From positions 1 through 64,000 of IMG/VR virus record IMGVR_UViG_641201006_000001: a stretch of DNA of 64,000 nucleotides; one strand, written 5' to 3'. This DNA comes from a virus. Taxonomy: Duplodnaviria > Caudoviricetes. The notes under the pieces were generated by a model. The model was not told the DNA's origin. It ran no database searches and saw nothing but the letters and a program-made list of their open reading frames with translations. This document shows, piece by piece, positions 1 through 7,285 of the stretch (its first letter is position 1; each line of letters starts with the position of its first letter). Position numbers and translations under genes: made by a program.

Positions 1-353
1 GGAGCAGGGAGAGAAAGGGACGAAAAGAAAACTATTTCGCCCATATACGTTCGTCGATTGCCCGATGATGCGTGCGAACGCAATCATATAAAGCATCAAG
101 CGTGCGAATGCGTTTCGAATGAAAGCAATGCGACGCAAAATGAAGATGCCATATATACAGGGACGACGAACCATAACTGGTAGAGCGTACCAGTTGTACA
201 AGAACGACGCTGGGTGGTGAACGGCTCGCTCTGCTCGCCGTCGTAGGTCACTGCGTTTCCCCACAACACCCTTCCTGCGAATACGCCGGAGGCGGGGTAT
301 CACACAAGCAGAACCTCTATTGACTGCGAACACGGTCTGAATGTACGACCGTA

Positions 354-1100
354 CTACGCTCCACATCTTAACCATGCATCTCTTATTTCATAACCGGTTG
401 GCTGACGTTCATTGTTGCTAACGAACAACTCACGAAATTCGACCAACCACGATGCATCTACTGTTCCGCTGTATCTTGTCACTAGAGTATTTTCCTTACG
501 CTCCGCAGGACTCACATTCTCCTGCTTCGGTTTATTATGCGTCTGTACTCGCTTACGCTCCTCTTGTTTTACTCGTACGGATGCTGGCATCTTACGTACT
601 CGGACTAACGCTTTTACTATGCGTGCAATGTCACCATGCACTCCATTACTGAATGGCTTAAATGAATCAATCGCTGACTGTATCATCATTGGTTTCATAG
701 GTTTCCCATCCACCTTTATATATGGTCGTGCATCAGATGGATTCCATCCAATCTTAACTGTTACTCCCTTTTGTTTGAAGACAACGCCCAGCTCGTTGCT
801 ACGCACATACTCAAATACTTTCGTGTACGCTGGTGCTGTCTTTTCTTCCGGCTCGCTGTCGCTCGCCGAATCATATCCTAGTTCCTCTGCTACATAGAAG
901 TCATTCAGACACTCTATGCAAATGTGTCCATCATCCTCTGTGTAACATAGGTGACGAGACTCCTCATTGCAGAGTTCACATTGCTCGCTGACGCTCGCAA
1001 GTTTTACAGTCATCACTTTATAACTACGACCAAGTTTCTTTGTTTTCCAATCCATCCATAATACATATCTCTCTTCATTCACTACTGTTAAATTCATCAT
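354..1100 (-). CDS. Hypothetical early protein with a Cys/His Zn-finger-like motif
   Basis: ORF 354..1115; GGAGG SD precedes ATG at 1100 (MMNLTVV). Motif CELC..HLC..HICIEC. Confidence 0.8.
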   Translation of the reverse strand: MMNLTVVNEERYVLWMDWKTKKLGRSYKVMTVKLASVSEQCELCNEESRHLCYTEDDGHICIECLNDFYVAEELGYDSASDSEPEEKTAPAYTKVFEYVRSNELGVVFKQKGVTVKIGWNPSDARPYIKVDGKPMKPMMIQSAIDSFKPFSNGVHGDIARIVKALVRVRKMPASVRVKQEERKRVQTHNKPKQENVSPAERKENTLVTRYSGTVDASWLVEFRELFVSNNERQPTGYEIRDAWLRCGA

Positions 1101-1135
1101 TTTAAATTCCTCCAATTTATATGTTTTTTGTTTAA

Positions 1136-1835
1136 AGCCGGGGACTCATTAGTGGTAGCCTGTTCAGGGCATCTCAGACTTCACCAATCGTGTCCATGAA
1201 GTTGCTAGGTCAACTGACACTGACTGAACAACTCCGTAGAGATTGTTTTCACATGTGCGTGCGTTATGTCTTCTAGTCATGACGTACTCTCCCTCGACCA
1301 AGAGTTAGAGTCGGCGTCCTAGCTTCTTGCACTTCCCTCGAAAGGGTGGCTATCCACTAGGGGCGTCCTCCATTCTTGTTAGTACGGAGAGCAGCAATGA
1401 CATACATGATGTCACGCAATGAGGACTCGTGTTGTCTTAACCCGAAGCAATCTGTGTCCTCACTGCTTCGGGATGTTAGCTGGTTGCTAAGTTTCCTAGT
1501 ACCATGTTTGTCCGCTACCCTATCGCGCTATCACTGATTACGGAGTGACCATCCGGGATACTGAATAAATGCTACATATATCTCACGACATACTGCATTG
1601 CCTGATTCCTCAACAGATCTCTTGTTTATACCGACGTTGATTCAGACGTCGAGGCATACTTGTGAAACGGTGGATGCTTACCGTGCCTGATAGGTCGCTA
1701 CTCGTCTACTGTTATGAGTAACAACGATGTTAGGTCTGATGATTCTACGAGGGCAACCAACCCTCCTCTCTGGTGTAGTTATAGTTGACACCATAAGAGA
1801 CACGATATGCTCATGTCTCCTAGCTACCAACTATA
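1136..1835 (-). ncRNA. Putative large structured non-coding RNA (family not recognised)
   Basis: No ORF >=60 aa; GC-richer than flanking genes; more than 12 stems. G-U pairs and UUCG/GUGA loops favour the minus strand. Long-range helix 1150-1160/1348-1359; pseudoknot 1420-1426/1456-1462. Confidence 0.65.
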
Positions 1836-3488
1836 TTACTGACGACCTAACAACATAGCTTCTAACTGTGTATTTAACGCTTCTTCATCTCCTGTCTCAT
1901 GGAATAGTGCCATCGCATCACACAATGGTGTTGATACTAACTTCTCTGCTGTCATTCTTAATACGCCGTTGTCATCGAAGTCTACATCAGCTACTTGTTC
2001 ATGATTGTTGTACGGCCATAACACTAAGTCTTTTGATACGAAGCCACTGTTCATCATGTTCTCTTTTGTATATACGGTGTATCCTCTCTTACGTAATGTA
2101 TCAGCAACGATTTCCACACTGCCTTTATACTCAACACGACCTGTATATAACTCTTCAATGAATAAGGAATGATCTTCACCAATGCGGATTAAGAATCTAC
2201 CACCCCATCTGTTTTCACCTTCATCGAAATAGCCAACGATTGTCGCACCGGATACATTACCCAACACACCGATGTTGTTGTCATTCACCTTACCTAGTTC
2301 CCACTTCATACATGACGTCCACTCCTTATCTGTTGATACACGTAGTAGATCATCCTTCATACCACTGAACTTCACATGACCTGTCTTCTTCGTATTACGT
2401 GTTTCTACAATGTGTTTTACTTTGCCTAATGGAATACGAATGTCATCACCCAATATTTCCATCACTTGCGGAAACTCTTTTTCAATTCTGTTGATATACT
2501 TCACGACGCTGATCTTTCTGCCATCATCTAGTTGTACCTTGTTCTCCATGAAATCATCCTCATCTAATCGTTGTAATCGTAATAGTCTCATTTGGAATAT
2601 TACTGTGTGTTTGTGTAATGGATTCTCATAATCGACACGCAATGCACTTGATACATCTCGCAATGCTGAATGGAACATCTCATGTGAGTGATTGATTAAC
2701 TCAATGTCGAATGAATCTACAAGCAATGGATGTGCTGCTACTTGTTTGTGATTCGCTATCTTCATCATGTGATTGATTAATACTCTTGGATTGTTATCTA
2801 ATCGTGCTAAGTAATACATATCAACCATCATCACATTACCGATGTCGTACTTACCTGTGAATGTCATCTCTCTATCTACGTATGCATACTTCTTAGTTAC
2901 ATAGTTTTGTAGAACACCTTGTTCATATAGATACTCACAATAGTCTCTGCTTAACTTGTATTCATGTCCGAGTTTGAATCCATACTTCTTCGCACATAAT
3001 GATGCTCTGATATAACCTGTTGGTTCGAACTTGAGTGGACGAATGATACGTTGTTTGAATCCAATCTCTGCTGGTTCTGTGATAACAACCTTGCCGTCGT
3101 AGTAACATGCAGTGATGTTAATGTCGAAGTCCTCTTGTACATACTGACGAATATCATCTGTGTTCACCATCATGATCTCTACACGATACTTACCTATCGT
3201 ACCTTTTAATACTGATACAATTTTACTGATCTCAATGACACGTACTGATTCATCATCATCTTCTACTGTGATACTTGGACGTTCTCTGATTACCTCGCTG
3301 AACATAAAGCCCTTGCTTAATACGTGATATAATACCTCTGACTTACATGCGTCGGATGTAGATACGAACACATCAATGTCATTAGGTTCTTTACCCATCA
3401 ATGCATCTAATACACATCCACCTGCGATAATACCTTTGAAACCTTTTACCACTTTGTATACTTCTTTAATACCTGTACTTGCTGTCAT
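1836..3488 (-). CDS. Class II nucleotidyltransferase (CCA-adding/poly(A) polymerase head-like) fused to an uncharacterised C-terminal domain
   Basis: IIAGGCVLDALMGKEPNDIDVFV matches the GG.VRD...P.DxD motif A; EDFDINITACYYD corresponds to RRDFTINA. AAGGAG SD upstream. Confidence 0.8.
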   Translation of the reverse strand: MTASTGIKEVYKVVKGFKGIIAGGCVLDALMGKEPNDIDVFVSTSDACKSEVLYHVLSKGFMFSEVIRERPSITVEDDDESVRVIEISKIVSVLKGTIGKYRVEIMMVNTDDIRQYVQEDFDINITACYYDGKVVITEPAEIGFKQRIIRPLKFEPTGYIRASLCAKKYGFKLGHEYKLSRDYCEYLYEQGVLQNYVTKKYAYVDREMTFTGKYDIGNVMMVDMYYLARLDNNPRVLINHMMKIANHKQVAAHPLLVDSFDIELINHSHEMFHSALRDVSSALRVDYENPLHKHTVIFQMRLLRLQRLDEDDFMENKVQLDDGRKISVVKYINRIEKEFPQVMEILGDDIRIPLGKVKHIVETRNTKKTGHVKFSGMKDDLLRVSTDKEWTSCMKWELGKVNDNNIGVLGNVSGATIVGYFDEGENRWGGRFLIRIGEDHSLFIEELYTGRVEYKGSVEIVADTLRKRGYTVYTKENMMNSGFVSKDLVLWPYNNHEQVADVDFDDNGVLRMTAEKLVSTPLCDAMALFHETGDEEALNTQLEAMLLGRQ

Positions 3489-3516
3489 GTTTATTCTCTC
3501 CTTTTAATTTAAATAA

Positions 3517-3539
3517 GGAGCCGAGATATACCCGACTCC
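3517..3539 (-). terminator. Hairpin / possible intrinsic terminator
   Basis: Minus strand GGAGTCGGG-TATAT-CTCGGCTCC followed by TTATTT. Confidence 0.5.
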
Positions 3540-3550
3540 GATGATTGTTA

Positions 3551-4225
3551 TTATTTATTTAATACTTCTGCTACTTTCAGTTTCCATACACCTCTTGTTG
3601 GCTTACCTTGTTTACCTAAGTCTCTCATGTATGCTTGATACCCACTGTTGAACTTACTACCTACCTTCTTGAACTTGTTCGCTGCATATACTTCTGCACC
3701 AATCTCTTTATGTGCTTCGATGATAAGATTAGAGATTCTTTCATCCATTGCTGATTCATATACTTTAACTTCCTTCACTTCCTCTTCTTCTTCCTGTGGA
3801 GTGATAACAGGCTCTTCTTGTTGTGGCACGATACTTACTTGTCCTTGCATCATACCTTCCACGATACCACGCATGATACCTTGTACTGCATCTGCTAATT
3901 CCTCTTGTACAACTTCTCTTACTGTTGCTCTGATCTCCTCTTTAAACACTGGCATTACATCCTCTCTAACTGTTTTGATGATTGTATTCTGTACGTTGTT
4001 TGCCCACATTTGTGTTAGTGTCCCAATACTATCACGAGCGATAACAGCGAATATATCCTCTGTTGATACTGGCTTCTTCTTAATAGTTGATACGATTTCT
4101 TTTGCTACTTCCATTTCAGTTTTCTGTTTTAACTTACCTGCACGAATGATTTCTTCATCACGCTTGTTTGCACCATAACGTTTATTCCATCTGTCTAACC
4201 CTGATTGTGTATTCTTCATAGTCAT
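3551..4225 (-). CDS. Hypothetical early protein (helical, acidic linker)
   Basis: 224-aa ORF, GGAGG SD, start overlaps the upstream stop. Confidence 0.85.
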   Translation of the reverse strand: MTMKNTQSGLDRWNKRYGANKRDEEIIRAGKLKQKTEMEVAKEIVSTIKKKPVSTEDIFAVIARDSIGTLTQMWANNVQNTIIKTVREDVMPVFKEEIRATVREVVQEELADAVQGIMRGIVEGMMQGQVSIVPQQEEPVITPQEEEEEVKEVKVYESAMDERISNLIIEAHKEIGAEVYAANKFKKVGSKFNSGYQAYMRDLGKQGKPTRGVWKLKVAEVLNK

Positions 4226-4569
4226 TAGATTGTATCCTCCTGTGTAGATGCTGTTTCAGCCATCATCATTATTTGTTCAAACATAATCTCGAATCTTACT
4301 TCACTTCCTCCATTACCTTGTGCATTCAGTCGAATACCATGATGTGCATACATTTGTTTAATAATCTTTGCTTCATTTGTGCTTTTTAATCTTACGTTTG
4401 TTTTGATTCTTGTTACAGTCAATCTGTCGATACCAAGAGATAACATGTACGATACGCAATCTTTTAAATAAGCCTTAGCTTCTTGTTGTTGGTCTAGGAT
4501 TAGCTTTTGTGCTACGTTGTGTGATAATACCCCTTCAATCATTGAGATTGTTTCATTTGACAACTTCAT
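4225..4569 (-). CDS. Hypothetical early protein
   Basis: 114-aa ORF coupled to both neighbours by TAATG overlaps. Confidence 0.8.
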   Translation of the reverse strand: MKLSNETISMIEGVLSHNVAQKLILDQQQEAKAYLKDCVSYMLSLGIDRLTVTRIKTNVRLKSTNEAKIIKQMYAHHGIRLNAQGNGGSEVRFEIMFEQIMMMAETASTQEDTI

Positions 4570-5594
4570 TATTCCTTATCCCCTTTACTAATTAGTTCAC
4601 TTGTTGCACGTAATGTTCCTGATGCTAAATCCACTCCTGCATGACCTACTTCTCCGCCTAGCTTGATAACTGTTCTACCGGCACGTTCTGTTACATTCAA
4701 TACTTCTCTTGTTAAGCCGAGTGCAGATTCTAATACACTGTTTAATAATTGTGTTCCTCTGTCTACACCTGCATGACCGTACTTATCTACTACAGCAGCT
4801 CCTTTCAATAGCCCTTGTGCGGCACTTAATGTTAAACCTTTGTACTTCGTTCTGATTAATTCCTGTACATCACCTCCCTTCAATGCATGTAATTTCTCTT
4901 CCACTGAACGGTACTCTAATACTAGTTCGTTGTACTTTTGAGGCTTAGTGATATTCTTGTTCATCTCTTGTTGAATATGACCTAGTTGTTTATCTAGCCC
5001 ATCAATGACCTTTTGCTTATCCCCTTCTGTTAATACCAATTCCTGTACTGCTTCTTCTACTACCTGTATGCTATCCTCTGCTACTGCCTGTGCTGTTGCA
5101 TCTGTTACTTGTTGCATCTTCTCTGCTGCCATAGCCAATACTTCTTGTTCTTTCTTAGCTAGTGCTTGTTTCGTTAACTCTCTATGCTGTGCTGTTAGTT
5201 CTTCCTGCATTGCTTTAACCTCTTCCTCTGTGTATACCTTACCTTCTGTTGTTGCTGCTACTTGTTCTTTAGCCATGTTCATTACCTCCATTTGTTGTTG
5301 TATTGCAGTGAATTGATTGATGATCTCTTTCAGTATCTCTGTACGCATACCCATGTTGACGTTAGCACCTAAGTTGTTAGCCTGTTGTACTAGTGATAAT
5401 CGTTGACTATGCATTACTGTTACTCGTTGATATAGCTTGATGATGTTCTCTTTCTTTGTTCTATCACCTTGATACTCTACTAATTGTTTTTCTGCTACTA
5501 CCTTGATGTTTAAGCCCATATCCTTACATAGCGCCCCTGTAATACGGTTAATATCCTTTACTGTCATACCTTCGATTGTTTTTAAGTCTGTCAT
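4569..5594 (-). CDS. Hypothetical coiled-coil protein
   Basis: 341 aa, E/Q/A/K-rich helical sequence, AAGGAG SD. Confidence 0.85.
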   Translation of the reverse strand: MTDLKTIEGMTVKDINRITGALCKDMGLNIKVVAEKQLVEYQGDRTKKENIIKLYQRVTVMHSQRLSLVQQANNLGANVNMGMRTEILKEIINQFTAIQQQMEVMNMAKEQVAATTEGKVYTEEEVKAMQEELTAQHRELTKQALAKKEQEVLAMAAEKMQQVTDATAQAVAEDSIQVVEEAVQELVLTEGDKQKVIDGLDKQLGHIQQEMNKNITKPQKYNELVLEYRSVEEKLHALKGGDVQELIRTKYKGLTLSAAQGLLKGAAVVDKYGHAGVDRGTQLLNSVLESALGLTREVLNVTERAGRTVIKLGGEVGHAGVDLASGTLRATSELISKGDKE

Positions 5595-5615
5595 AATAAT
5601 TAGCTCCTTTTATAA

Positions 5616-5762
5616 TTAGTTGTTTTTGTTTTTATTGATTAACTCACCTAGTGTTGGTGCTAGTTTAATACCTTGTTTCTTTTTGACTATGCTAGTTGAT
5701 ACCTTACCGATACCTGCTTTCTCCACTGTGTTAATGAATGTAACTACTGCTCTCTTCTTCAT
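5616..5762 (-). CDS. Small basic hypothetical protein (48 aa, below the ORF-track cutoff)
   Basis: GGAGGAG SD then ATG at 5762: MKKRAVVTFINTVEKAGIGKVSTSIVKKKQGIKLAPTLGELINKNKNN*. Fills the gap between two minus-strand genes. Confidence 0.7.
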   Translation of the reverse strand: MKKRAVVTFINTVEKAGIGKVSTSIVKKKQGIKLAPTLGELINKNKNN

Positions 5763-5774
5763 ACCTAACTCCTC

Positions 5775-6395
5775 CTATGCAAATAAGTTTTTAATCTTAC
5801 CTAATAGACTACTGAATACACCCTGCTTACCTTCTCCTGGTGGTAATTCATTGTTGTCCTTTAGTCTCTTGATGTAGATGATACGTTTCTCTAACTCAGG
5901 TACTAGATGATGGATACCTAGTCTGATACCCTCTGCTCTCATGATGTTAAGCATTAGTAATACACTCTCCTTTCCACACTGTTGTACTGCATACTCATCA
6001 CACTTAAACTCTTGCTCTGTCACCTCGTGCTGTTCTGTTAGATGTCCAGTAGGATACATGATATGACCTAGTTCATGAGATACTAGTGCTTGTCTTACAT
6101 ACTGGTTACTGTTGAATGATTTATAGTCATATACAATAATCATGTAATCTAAGTAGTATCCTGTTAGTTCAGCGATTTGTTCATTGTCATACACTGTCAT
6201 CATTACAGTTAAGATACGAGTGTCGATGTGGTGCTTCTCGATGTCCTCAATGGATAGTTGATGATGACTTGCTAAGTCTTGTGGTTGTTCGATGATAGCA
6301 ACATGTTCTGTCTTGCCGTTGATGTTTACAGTGAATACTTCTTTCACCGATTGTCTTACTTCCATTACTTCTGCTTGCGTTAGTTTGTCTGTCAT
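5775..6395 (-). CDS. Zincin metallopeptidase (HExxH; M48/ImmA-IrrE-like)
   Basis: ALVSHELGHI...EFKCDEYA = HExxH plus downstream E..(A/C)D..A; GGAGG SD. Confidence 0.8.
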   Translation of the reverse strand: MTDKLTQAEVMEVRQSVKEVFTVNINGKTEHVAIIEQPQDLASHHQLSIEDIEKHHIDTRILTVMMTVYDNEQIAELTGYYLDYMIIVYDYKSFNSNQYVRQALVSHELGHIMYPTGHLTEQHEVTEQEFKCDEYAVQQCGKESVLLMLNIMRAEGIRLGIHHLVPELEKRIIYIKRLKDNNELPPGEGKQGVFSSLLGKIKNLFA

Positions 6396-6606
6396 TTGTC
6401 ATTCCTCCATTAGTTTAGGTGTAGTCAAAAGGGGTGGGGCATGAAACAACCCTATACCCCCATTGCTATATATAAGACGTGGTACTCCCCAAAAATATCT
6501 GTAATTTTTTCGCCTATAGGGAATTTCCATATCGTACCAGCCGACTCCTCTTCTTTAGCATGTTGTCGTCGTCGGCTGTAGAATGTTACAAATATGTGCC
6601 GAACTG

Positions 6607-6636
6607 TTGTCAGAAGACTGTATCCTGTGCTACGCT
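6607..6636 (+). promoter_or_regulatory. Putative sigma-A-type promoter
   Basis: TTGTCA-18 nt-TACGCT with extended TG, upstream of the first plus-strand gene. Confidence 0.45.
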
Positions 6637-6670
6637 AGGTGCAGGGAGATAATCGAGGAGGACTGTAACA

Positions 6671-7285
6671 ATGGATGGAGATACTATCGGTGGAGAAGAA
6701 TCGTTTGTAGAGGTTAAGGTAGCGATGGATCACGAAGAGAAGAAGTCGTTCATGTCTCGTCCGGGACTGGATGCGAATGGAGTAAGTAGGTTTGTATTAC
6801 CAAACGGTGGAGATATGAATGTCATCGTCCACGGCAGGGTCGCACACGAGGTAGACGAGATTCTATTCGAAGAGAAATTACCTAGTATGATGAAGACGTC
6901 GAATGAAGACGGTACATTAGAAGCGCCGATAAAAGGTTGTATGACTACAATCTTAGATGGCTCTCACGATCAGATACGTGATGATATTCGTCAAGGCATT
7001 ATGCGTACCGAAGAAACGATTCTCGGTAAACCGGACTCTATACTTGTCGCTGACTTTTGGGTAGAAGAAACTCAAAGAGGTTATCGTGCATCATTCCGTG
7101 ATGTGAAGTTTACGAAAGTAAAGAATGATTTCAATCGTATGGATATCGTATTGACGAATCGTTTCTTCTTTGAAGCGCAGGACGTTGTGTTTACGCCGTA
7201 CAAACGTGATGAAACTGGATGTGTCTCCGTAGCGTTAAGCAAGGAGACAGAAGAAAGATTAAAGAGGATGGTGCTAAATGGCTAA
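6671..7285 (+). CDS. Hypothetical protein
   Basis: 204-aa ORF with GAGGAGG SD. Confidence 0.8.
   Translation: MDGDTIGGEESFVEVKVAMDHEEKKSFMSRPGLDANGVSRFVLPNGGDMNVIVHGRVAHEVDEILFEEKLPSMMKTSNEDGTLEAPIKGCMTTILDGSHDQIRDDIRQGIMRTEETILGKPDSILVADFWVEETQRGYRASFRDVKFTKVKNDFNRMDIVLTNRFFFEAQDVVFTPYKRDETGCVSVALSKETEERLKRMVLNG

Follow-up and report, generated by a model that had tools for sequence, protein, structure and literature searches.

A candidate large RNA and an atypical class II-type nucleotidyltransferase side by side in the terminal repeat of a large phage

The left end of a large phage genome, covered here by a window of 64,000 nucleotides (nt) (positions 1 to 64,000 of IMG/VR record IMGVR_UViG_641201006_000001), carries two adjoining elements on the minus strand of its terminal repeat: a stretch of 735 nt that is free of open reading frames (ORFs) and, directly upstream of it, the gene of a 550-amino acid (aa) enzyme. 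There is about an even chance that the stretch acts at the RNA level, whether by being processed into a large RNA or by serving as a structured leader. The enzyme looks, on the evidence of its motifs and predicted fold, like an active, non-canonical class II-type nucleotidyltransferase. Enzyme and stretch are two things, and their belonging to a single system is unproven. What is new is a plausible phage RNA together with an enzyme architecture in which head and neck domains are joined to an uncharacterised module. The features concerned are the following.

1836..3488, minus strand: atypical class II-type nucleotidyltransferase of 550 aa, assigned from PF01743, phrog_1614, fold and motifs
2844..3488, minus strand: head and neck domains of the enzyme (residues 1-215), from structural alignment to eight class II enzymes
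1989..2843, minus strand: C-terminal module of the enzyme (residues 216-500, 285 residues), from homologs P0012-P0014 and a separate model
1101..1835, minus strand: ORF-free candidate large RNA with undefined ends, from ORF absence, guanine-cytosine (GC) content and conservation
1312..1425, minus strand: core of the stretch, recognisable in more distant relatives, from contigs of X9 and X19
1335..1346, minus strand: predicted CCCU-UUCG-AGGG hairpin in the core, pair probability 0.79
354..1100, minus strand: downstream gene of 248 aa with a zinc-ribbon-like CxxC...CxxC motif, from phrog_36578
1..6479, no strand: left copy of the terminal repeat, identical to 212470..218948 with 0 mismatches

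The RNA reading is supported by the lack of ORFs, a higher GC content, near-invariance among related phages, partial conservation with retained spacing in distant relatives, and a minus strand that folds better than the plus strand. The label of structured RNA draws on composition, ORF absence and conservation, and is that of a candidate. Upstream the gap opens at the stop codon of the enzyme gene, and downstream it most likely closes at ATG 1100 of the zinc-ribbon gene, not at TTG 1115, because the match to phrog_36578 covers residues 6-253 and a GGAGGA lies 7 nt before ATG 1100; hence the gap of 1101-1835. Its longest stop-to-stop frame is of 58 aa. None of 11 peptides derived from the stretch matched PHROGs at E ≤ 0.01, and a hidden or decayed gene was rejected as an identity, the stop-to-stop frames giving nothing convincing against that database. 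The stretch is tied for the largest gap in the genome that lacks an ORF of at least 70 aa, and its GC content is 0.461, compared with 0.385 for the enzyme gene, 0.435 for the downstream gene and 0.418 for the genome. A 38-aa frame lies inside the stretch (1164-1280, minus strand), starting from ATG 1280 with GGGAGAG 6 nt upstream.

Several known identities were considered and set aside. No model of Rfam 15 (4227 models, which presumably include GOLLD, ROOL, OLE, HEARO, introns, RNase P and tmRNA) reached its gathering score in the 64-kb window, and L002 and L004 gave 0 Rfam matches. ARAGORN detected no tRNA genes in the window, and the Rfam tRNA model found none in 1050-1900 at E ≤ 10; these tools do recover two tRNA-like genes elsewhere in the genome. 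A known RNA family was thus ruled out by the blanks in Rfam, both at gathering score and at E ≤ 10, and in ARAGORN. An intron splitting one gene was likewise rejected, the downstream ORF being dissimilar to the extended C-termini of the enzyme homologs P0007 and P0010 (best E-values of 4.4 and 0.36, respectively), and no intron model of Rfam gave a match. A DNA element built from repeats was also discarded, only short two-copy repeats being present: repeat families have 2 copies of 10-17 nt, the best inverted repeat measures 20 nt at 75%, and no tandem or dispersed repeat arrays or long palindromes were found in the stretch. Searches by blastn found no relatives of the stretch among phages or plasmids, and two 20-nt patterns taken from its core had no matches in IMG/VR. 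The record behind L001 was blank as well. No RNA at this place is reported in the literature searched on this phage, which did not extend to the first description of the genome (Thomas et al. 2007, Virology).

The metagenome contig L004 is 96.8% identical to the window over 7 kb, and its substitutions are distributed unevenly over the left end.

Non-coding stretch (1116-1835): 1 of 720
Enzyme gene: 62 of 1653 (3.75%)
Downstream gene: 4 of 762
Positions 1-353: 1 of 353
ORF 3551-4225: 12 of 675
ORF 4569-5594: 96 of 1026

The longest difference-free run in this comparison covers 907-1563 (657 nt). Public sequencing data contain the stretch in 20 runs, which belong to 9 studies of fermented food, sediment, root and wastewater; four of the runs (X9, X17, X18 and X19) were compared over 1-7000, with incomplete counts for X17 and X18. 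A metatranscriptome contig of X9 (3,943 nt, spanning 1-3740) carries 107 differences; among those listed as far as position 2076, at least 10 lie in 1-762, at least 1 in the stretch (1809) and at least 18 in 1870-2076. The difference at 1809 is also found in X18 and X17 and sits in a predicted hairpin loop. In L004 and in this contig, a near-invariant block begins at the genome end, takes in the downstream gene and the stretch, and gives out within the enzyme gene, about 5 nt (L004) to 34 nt (X9) from its 3' end; the first difference past the gap is at 1841 in L004 and, among those listed, at 1870 in X9. By linkage, the zinc-ribbon gene is thus at least as close a companion of the stretch as the enzyme gene is.

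More distant relatives retain part of the stretch. Within the core, the 81 nt at 1345-1425 show 8 differences in a contig of X19 and 11 in a 469-nt contig of X9. A further match of the latter covers 63 nt up to 1091, where the downstream gene starts; its two matches are separated by 253 nt on the window and, as reckoned from the record coordinates, by some 251 unlike nt in the record, so that length would be kept where sequence has diverged. A core of about 110 nt and its spacing would then persist while the flanks diverge, a pattern known from a single observation on contig fragments, which fits a functional RNA or a DNA element. A loose end of 30 nt in the X19 contig resembles 1315-1344, and judging from it X19 seems to keep the UUCG-capped hairpin with a stem two pairs shorter.

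When folded, the minus strand of the stretch has a minimum free energy (MFE) of -232/-236 kcal/mol, with z-scores of -5.0 (20 shuffles) and -4.0 (60 shuffles), compared with -2.45 and -2.1 for the plus strand. In 14 random 735-nt windows of the same genome, the z-score averaged -1.01 (standard deviation 1.58, minimum -5.13). The MFE of -236 kcal/mol is below that of both strands of all 14 controls (-146 to -207), and it is the lowest in absolute terms because of the higher GC content. Two of the predicted stems are capped by GNRA (GUGA) and UUCG loops. In view of these controls from the genome, stability was discarded as a proof of structure, and the predicted folding energies are suggestive only. 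A large structured RNA after the enzyme stop codon had been claimed in the first-pass annotation of the window. The claim stands for an ORF-free, GC-rich and conserved stretch, and is weaker as to the folding, with z-scores inside the genome background.

According to the favoured interpretation, the stretch would most likely be transcribed as part of an early operon that reads leftward through the terminal repeat. It would then be either processed into a large RNA that stands alone or kept as a long structured leader ahead of the zinc-ribbon gene, with the core of about 110 nt (1312-1425) carrying the main constraint. Transcription, the predicted fold, function and any contact with the enzyme are all put forward for the stretch as proposals of this kind.

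A number of observations weigh against an RNA function. The z-scores of the whole stretch are at the low end of the genome background yet within it, one of the 14 controls reaching -5.13, and 300-nt tiles of the stretch score -1.5 to -2.8, inside the spread of 40 random windows of that length (mean -0.99, standard deviation 1.38, minimum -5.1). The difference between strands, at 16 kcal/mol, is below the mean absolute difference in the controls (19.4) and is unremarkable. In 1050-1900, the Rfam search at E ≤ 10 returned mir-30 only, at a chance-level 15 bits against 50.2. No sigma-A-type promoter or terminator was found flanking the stretch, and co-transcription with both neighbours is therefore the simplest reading. 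Two substitutions are known in the stretch, 1564 (L004) and 1809, and the change at 1564 breaks a predicted pair with no compensation. The left 1835 nt as a whole contain 6 substitutions in L004; conservation thus extends over the entire left 1.8 kb, and much of the invariance could be due to a recent sweep or recombination. Finally, the contigs from RNA libraries cover the whole repeat evenly and are possibly DNA-derived; their coverage was rejected as evidence of expression.

Another explanation is that the stretch has no dedicated function, being a spacer or decayed remnant that is invariant only through recent exchange of the left 1.8 kb among these phages, or that it holds a small hidden gene. 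Such an explanation is unlikely. It would account for the near-invariance of the adjoining 1-1100 (5 substitutions in L004, at least 10 in X9), for folding statistics inside the genome background and for the missing RNA family match, and the GGGAGAG 6 nt before ATG 1280 is Shine-Dalgarno-like. Against this, the stretch is more conserved than its flank, with 2 differences in 2x720 positions of L004 and X9 combined, compared with 15 in 2x1100, or about 5 times fewer per base. More distant relatives still have the core and keep the overall spacing, decay does not explain the GC enrichment, and the 46-aa frame enclosing the 38-aa ORF reaches only phrog_2800 (E 0.031). Moreover, 0.7 kb of useless DNA is rarely kept in tightly packed phage genomes, as is argued in the excerpted text of PMC2147016.

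Less likely again is a role of the stretch as DNA, in the form of a replication origin, a site where the repeat is made or cut, or a region where injection pauses, as in the long terminal repeat of phage T5. It lies inside the terminal repeat, with 1.1-1.8 kb separating it from the physical end, which would suit such a role, as would conservation without coding and the better folding of both strands relative to shuffles. In the excerpts of PMC2147016, the authors assume that non-coding segments have non-coding functions and discuss special steps in the replication of the repeat. The composition and content of the stretch argue otherwise: it has no repeat arrays or long palindromes, it is GC-richer than its surroundings and not AT-rich, and only one partial DnaA-box-like heptamer was seen by eye. 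Folding of the minus strand is also more favourable than that of the plus strand, by 16 kcal/mol, with equal shuffled means.

For the enzyme encoded next to the candidate RNA, the sequence itself gives weak evidence of family. Its sole match in Pfam is PolyA_pol (PF01743), with 20.9 bits, below the 23-bit cut-off. Residues 15-144 match phrog_1614 'nucleotidyltransferase' in PHROGs (E 2.2e-14), and two curated NCBIfam models score far below their cut-offs, namely the CCA tRNA nucleotidyltransferase NF009814 (13.5 bits vs 290) and the PcnB model TIGR01942 (15.8 bits vs 305.65). PADLOC gave no match for the enzyme. An AlphaFold model from 11 sequences, with a predicted local distance difference test (pLDDT) score of 76, retrieved 46 PDB chains at E ≤ 0.001 in Foldseek, which down to rank 46 are all CCA-, A- or CC-adding enzymes or poly(A) polymerase. 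With the exhaustive aligner VIA-align, the best match was 3aql_A (Z 13.5, root-mean-square deviation 2.8 Å, 162 aligned residues), other top matches being 4wby_A (Z 12.5) and 1miv_A (Z 12.4). Eight class II enzymes align at Z 13.5-9.2, to model residues 1..214 only, which form the head and neck; for the tRNA nucleotidyltransferases and poly(A) polymerase 1miv, 4wby, 3h37 and 3aql, the alignments have Z-scores of 13.5-11.0 over 162-184 residues. The assignment to the class II nucleotidyltransferases made in the first-pass annotation is confirmed by this head and neck fold of residues 1-214 (Z 13.5-12.4 for the best three). Structural comparison, which it had suggested for both halves of the protein, has assigned the transferase half, the C-terminal half yielding only generic or weak matches.

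Like class II enzymes, the phage protein contains the GG-x-V-x-D...D-x-D pattern, the acidic residue that follows it, and a D-F-x-I-N segment corresponding to DFTIN. Motif A consists of GGCVLD at residue 23, where the R of GG-x-V-R-D has become L, and of DID at 37-39. The conserved acidic residue is E103 (D in most homologs), on the strand following D-x-D. QEDFDIN occupies residues 118-124 and aligns to the xCDFTIN of the canonical PolyA_pol domain in P0015. In the enzyme and ten homologs, G23, G24, D28, D37, D39, F121 and D122 are invariant, and these 11 sequences vary little or not at all at D131, G132, Y159, R161 and A162.

Two further motifs of class II enzymes are lost. RRD, or motif B, deals with the ribose and triphosphate, and EDxxR, or motif D, is the template for cytidine and adenosine triphosphate (CTP and ATP). 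Unlike class II enzymes, the phage enzyme has neither the RR of RRD nor EDxxR. A text search found RRD nowhere in it, with QED standing in its place, and neither the two positions ahead of F121 nor the places of the two arginines are conserved among the 11 family sequences. ED..R does not occur in the enzyme, the sole [DE]D..R being DDLLR at 379, outside the neck, and the family consensus at the place expected for EDxxR is GY[IV]RA. The initial description of a kept catalytic DxD, an altered RRD in QEDFDIN and no clear EDxxR holds in every part. The suspicion voiced there, that this may not be a standard CCA-adding enzyme, agrees with the failure of RRD, EDxxR and the curated score thresholds alike. 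To judge by these residues, the catalytic core looks intact, and those that select or template CTP and ATP appear to be gone.

The alignments to class II enzymes end at about residue 214, with no match to their body or tail, and the phage enzyme has another module of 285 residues instead. A separate model of this module (pLDDT 83) combines a bundle of helices with a beta-rich sub-domain. Matches of the bundle are generic only (Z ≤ 9.2), and the sub-domain has weak GNAT-type matches, the best Foldseek E-value being 0.02 and none reaching ≤ 0.001. Two leads came from the Atlas, GNAT folds matching the sub-domain at TM-scores of 0.43-0.51 and PcfJ with a score of 0.91 on 38% of cluster members; both are to be read as leads only. 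The fused C-terminal domain with WTSC and GRF signatures noticed at first sight is present, the two falling at residues 390 and 430. Invariant residues of the module follow the patterns W-x-S-C and R..R.G..E; all 17 sequences compared have W390, S392, C393 (of WTSC), R431 and E445. P0012-P0014 match residues 213-499 alone, which means that the module also occurs without the transferase domain. Pfam gave nothing for 12 of 16 homologs and chance-level matches for the rest, except the canonical multi-domain protein P0015. On the models, the tRNA-binding body and tail would have been replaced by an uncharacterised helical and GNAT-like module. With RRD and EDxxR lost and the body and tail apparently swapped, a non-standard acceptor is likely, and the enzyme would most likely add nucleotides to a 3' end or acceptor other than the standard tRNA-CCA end.

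The family is very rare: of 1.84 billion representative proteins, 34 match at E ≤ 0.001. Ten homologs are full-length (P0001-P0010). P0001, which is 91% identical to the enzyme, was the sole return of a word-index protein search, and P0002-P0010 are 32-37% identical. No homologs were found in 50,697 phage records or in the GTDB genomes searched; IMG/VR gave only L001, with a 45-residue match to the head domain, and a metagenome scan gave only the near-identical L004. Searched with the downstream gene, IMG/VR likewise yielded no match. Phage proteins annotated as 'poly A polymerase head domain' (phrog_1614; for example BFVD A0A2I7RNN9 of a Vibrio phage, 167 aa) resemble the enzyme in being phage-borne and in their head domain, and the BFVD head-domain models reach TM-scores of 0.55-0.69 against it when normalised by target. 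They differ in being stand-alone heads of 170-230 aa, whereas the enzyme adds a neck and a large module and belongs to a far rarer family. An acidic tail of the form [DE]x[LFI]P[FM], e.g., ..DDLPF, and more fully ...DPF...(D/E)(D/E)LPF, is found in 8 of the 9 homologs P0002-P0010 (not in P0006) and in P0013 and P0014, and is lacking in the window enzyme and P0001. This tail may resemble the C-terminal tip of the bacterial single-stranded DNA-binding protein (SSB), which would hint at a setting in DNA replication. A search of PDB sequences with the 25-residue tail of P0004 returned nothing meaningful, and no PF00436 SSB gene was found in the phage genome.

A terminator-like hairpin (3517..3539, minus strand) of 9 pairs followed by a T-rich tail lies in the gap (3489-3550) that separates the enzyme gene from the gene upstream. 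It is only about 28 nt from the ribosome-binding site of the enzyme gene, which therefore leaves no room for a standard promoter, and the gene may depend on read-through past this hairpin.

Lower still in probability is the proposal, made at the outset, that enzyme and RNA form a two-component unit, the RNA being substrate, guide or scaffold, for instance in repairing tRNA ends, in tailing RNA or in nucleotidylating a host target early in infection. The enzyme gene and the stretch do adjoin, share a strand and have no intervening terminator, and the head and neck fold handles RNA 3' ends, yet the CCA-templating motifs are gone, so that another acceptor would be needed. The tRNA-like genes of the phage number only two, both of them odd. 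A complementarity of 9 bp links 1728-1736 (1717-1736 arm) to the final codons of the enzyme gene (1844-1863 arm), which could mean that the RNA begins inside the enzyme ORF, or could be chance, and among the X9 differences listed none falls at 1836-1869. On the other side, co-occurrence is seen in near-identical phages only, synteny with L004 being trivial at 96.8% identity, and the conservation block couples the stretch with the downstream gene while the enzyme gene is 3.75% divergent in L004. The C-terminal module exists apart from the transferase domain, the acidic tail of most homologs presumably points towards DNA replication, and no tRNA-like element was detected in the stretch. The conservation block and the separable module and tail lean against an enzyme-RNA pair and do not refute it. 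Least probable of all is the fullest version of this proposal, in which a new, large and ornate phage RNA made early from both repeats and a dedicated transferase with its GNAT-like module, tailing or charging its 3' end or using it as a scaffold, would constitute a ribonucleoprotein for host takeover or counter-defence.

Several known phage elements bear comparison with the stretch. The prohead RNA of phi29 has a defined fold of about 170 nt and serves in a protein-primed packaging motor. It resembles the stretch as a Bacillus phage RNA located near the left end and transcribed towards that end, and differs in size, at about 170 nt vs 735 nt. The injection stop region of T5 is a sizeable non-coding segment in a long terminal repeat with pre-early genes, as here; it contains many direct and inverted repeats, unlike the stretch, which has no such arrays. 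Closer in size are GOLLD and ROOL (excerpted text of PMC12286853) and lnc001 and lnc002 of Staphylococcus phage K, which are described in the excerpts of PMC9241854 as early, abundant long non-coding RNAs with no assigned function. In common with these, the stretch is ORF-free, several hundred nt long (0.6-0.8 kb) and situated in a large Firmicutes phage. It differs from them in having no Rfam match, no neighbouring tRNA genes in the window and no promoter of its own that could be found, and it is known here from sequence alone.

The record from which the window is taken has 218,948 bp, and a self-search of this genome gave an exact direct terminal repeat of 6,479 bp. The non-coding stretch is hence present in two genome copies, 1116-1835 and 213585-214304. 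All ORFs of at least 114 aa within the repeat are on the minus strand and point leftward in the ORF list, and of the larger ones 6 of 6 match their own PHROG at E < 1e-78. The lengths of record and repeat agree with those of the Bacillus thuringiensis phage 0305phi8-36, so that the window would be the left end of that phage or of an identical record; the excerpts of PMC3357382 describe the phage as lytic and cultivable, with a non-permuted genome and selected deletion mutants.

Other parts of the repeat have features of their own. The final bases before the physical end (1-353) contain no ORF and have the highest GC content in the repeat (0.52), and the right arm's end is joined straight to base 1 in contigs from X9 and X18. 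The first gene of the terminal-repeat operon (5775-6395, minus strand) encodes a HELGH (HExxH) motif, and its product scores 21.3 bits against the 'putative phage metallopeptidase' PF18894, below the cut-off of 23.7. ORF 4569-5594 (minus strand), whose product is Q/E/K-rich, coiled-coil-like and without family, includes a hypervariable segment at 5101-5550: 113 of the approximately 230 differences between the window and L004 over 7 kb (substitutions plus insertion/deletion columns) lie in these 450 bases. Over the whole ORF there are 96 substitutions and 21 insertion/deletion columns relative to L004.

The motif CGTGCGAACG has 19 copies in the genome, all in one orientation, with the window copy at 71-80 and 16 of the 18 others at 144-212 kb. 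The 3-4 bases flanking it are complementary and specific to each copy (GTG..CAC, GGG..CCC, AGC..GCT), which therefore suggests a hairpin with a GCGA loop and a co-varying stem. A promoter of hairpin shape would resemble those of phage N4. Most copies are located just upstream of ribosome-binding sites on the minus strand, beside a TnTTwTGTA-like box, and the motif is probably the 'phage-specific promoter' logo of the Fig. 6 legend in the excerpted PMC2147016.

The two tRNA-like genes are outside the window on the minus strand, at 182565-182668 and 183122-183193 of the genome, in and beside its other ORF-free gap of about 730 bp (182253-182986). One scores 36 bits with a 4-base anticodon call, the other 30.5 bits with an insertion of about 35 nt, and the CCA end is not encoded in either.

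Should the stretch prove to be no more than a spacer beside a generic transferase, little would be lost. If it is a real RNA, it would be a new and tractable member of the few large bacterial and phage RNAs without known function. The enzyme is of interest by itself, with a CCA-type core from which both nucleotide-selecting motifs are gone and to which a new module has been added, and its acceptor, once identified, would extend the known activities of the class II family.

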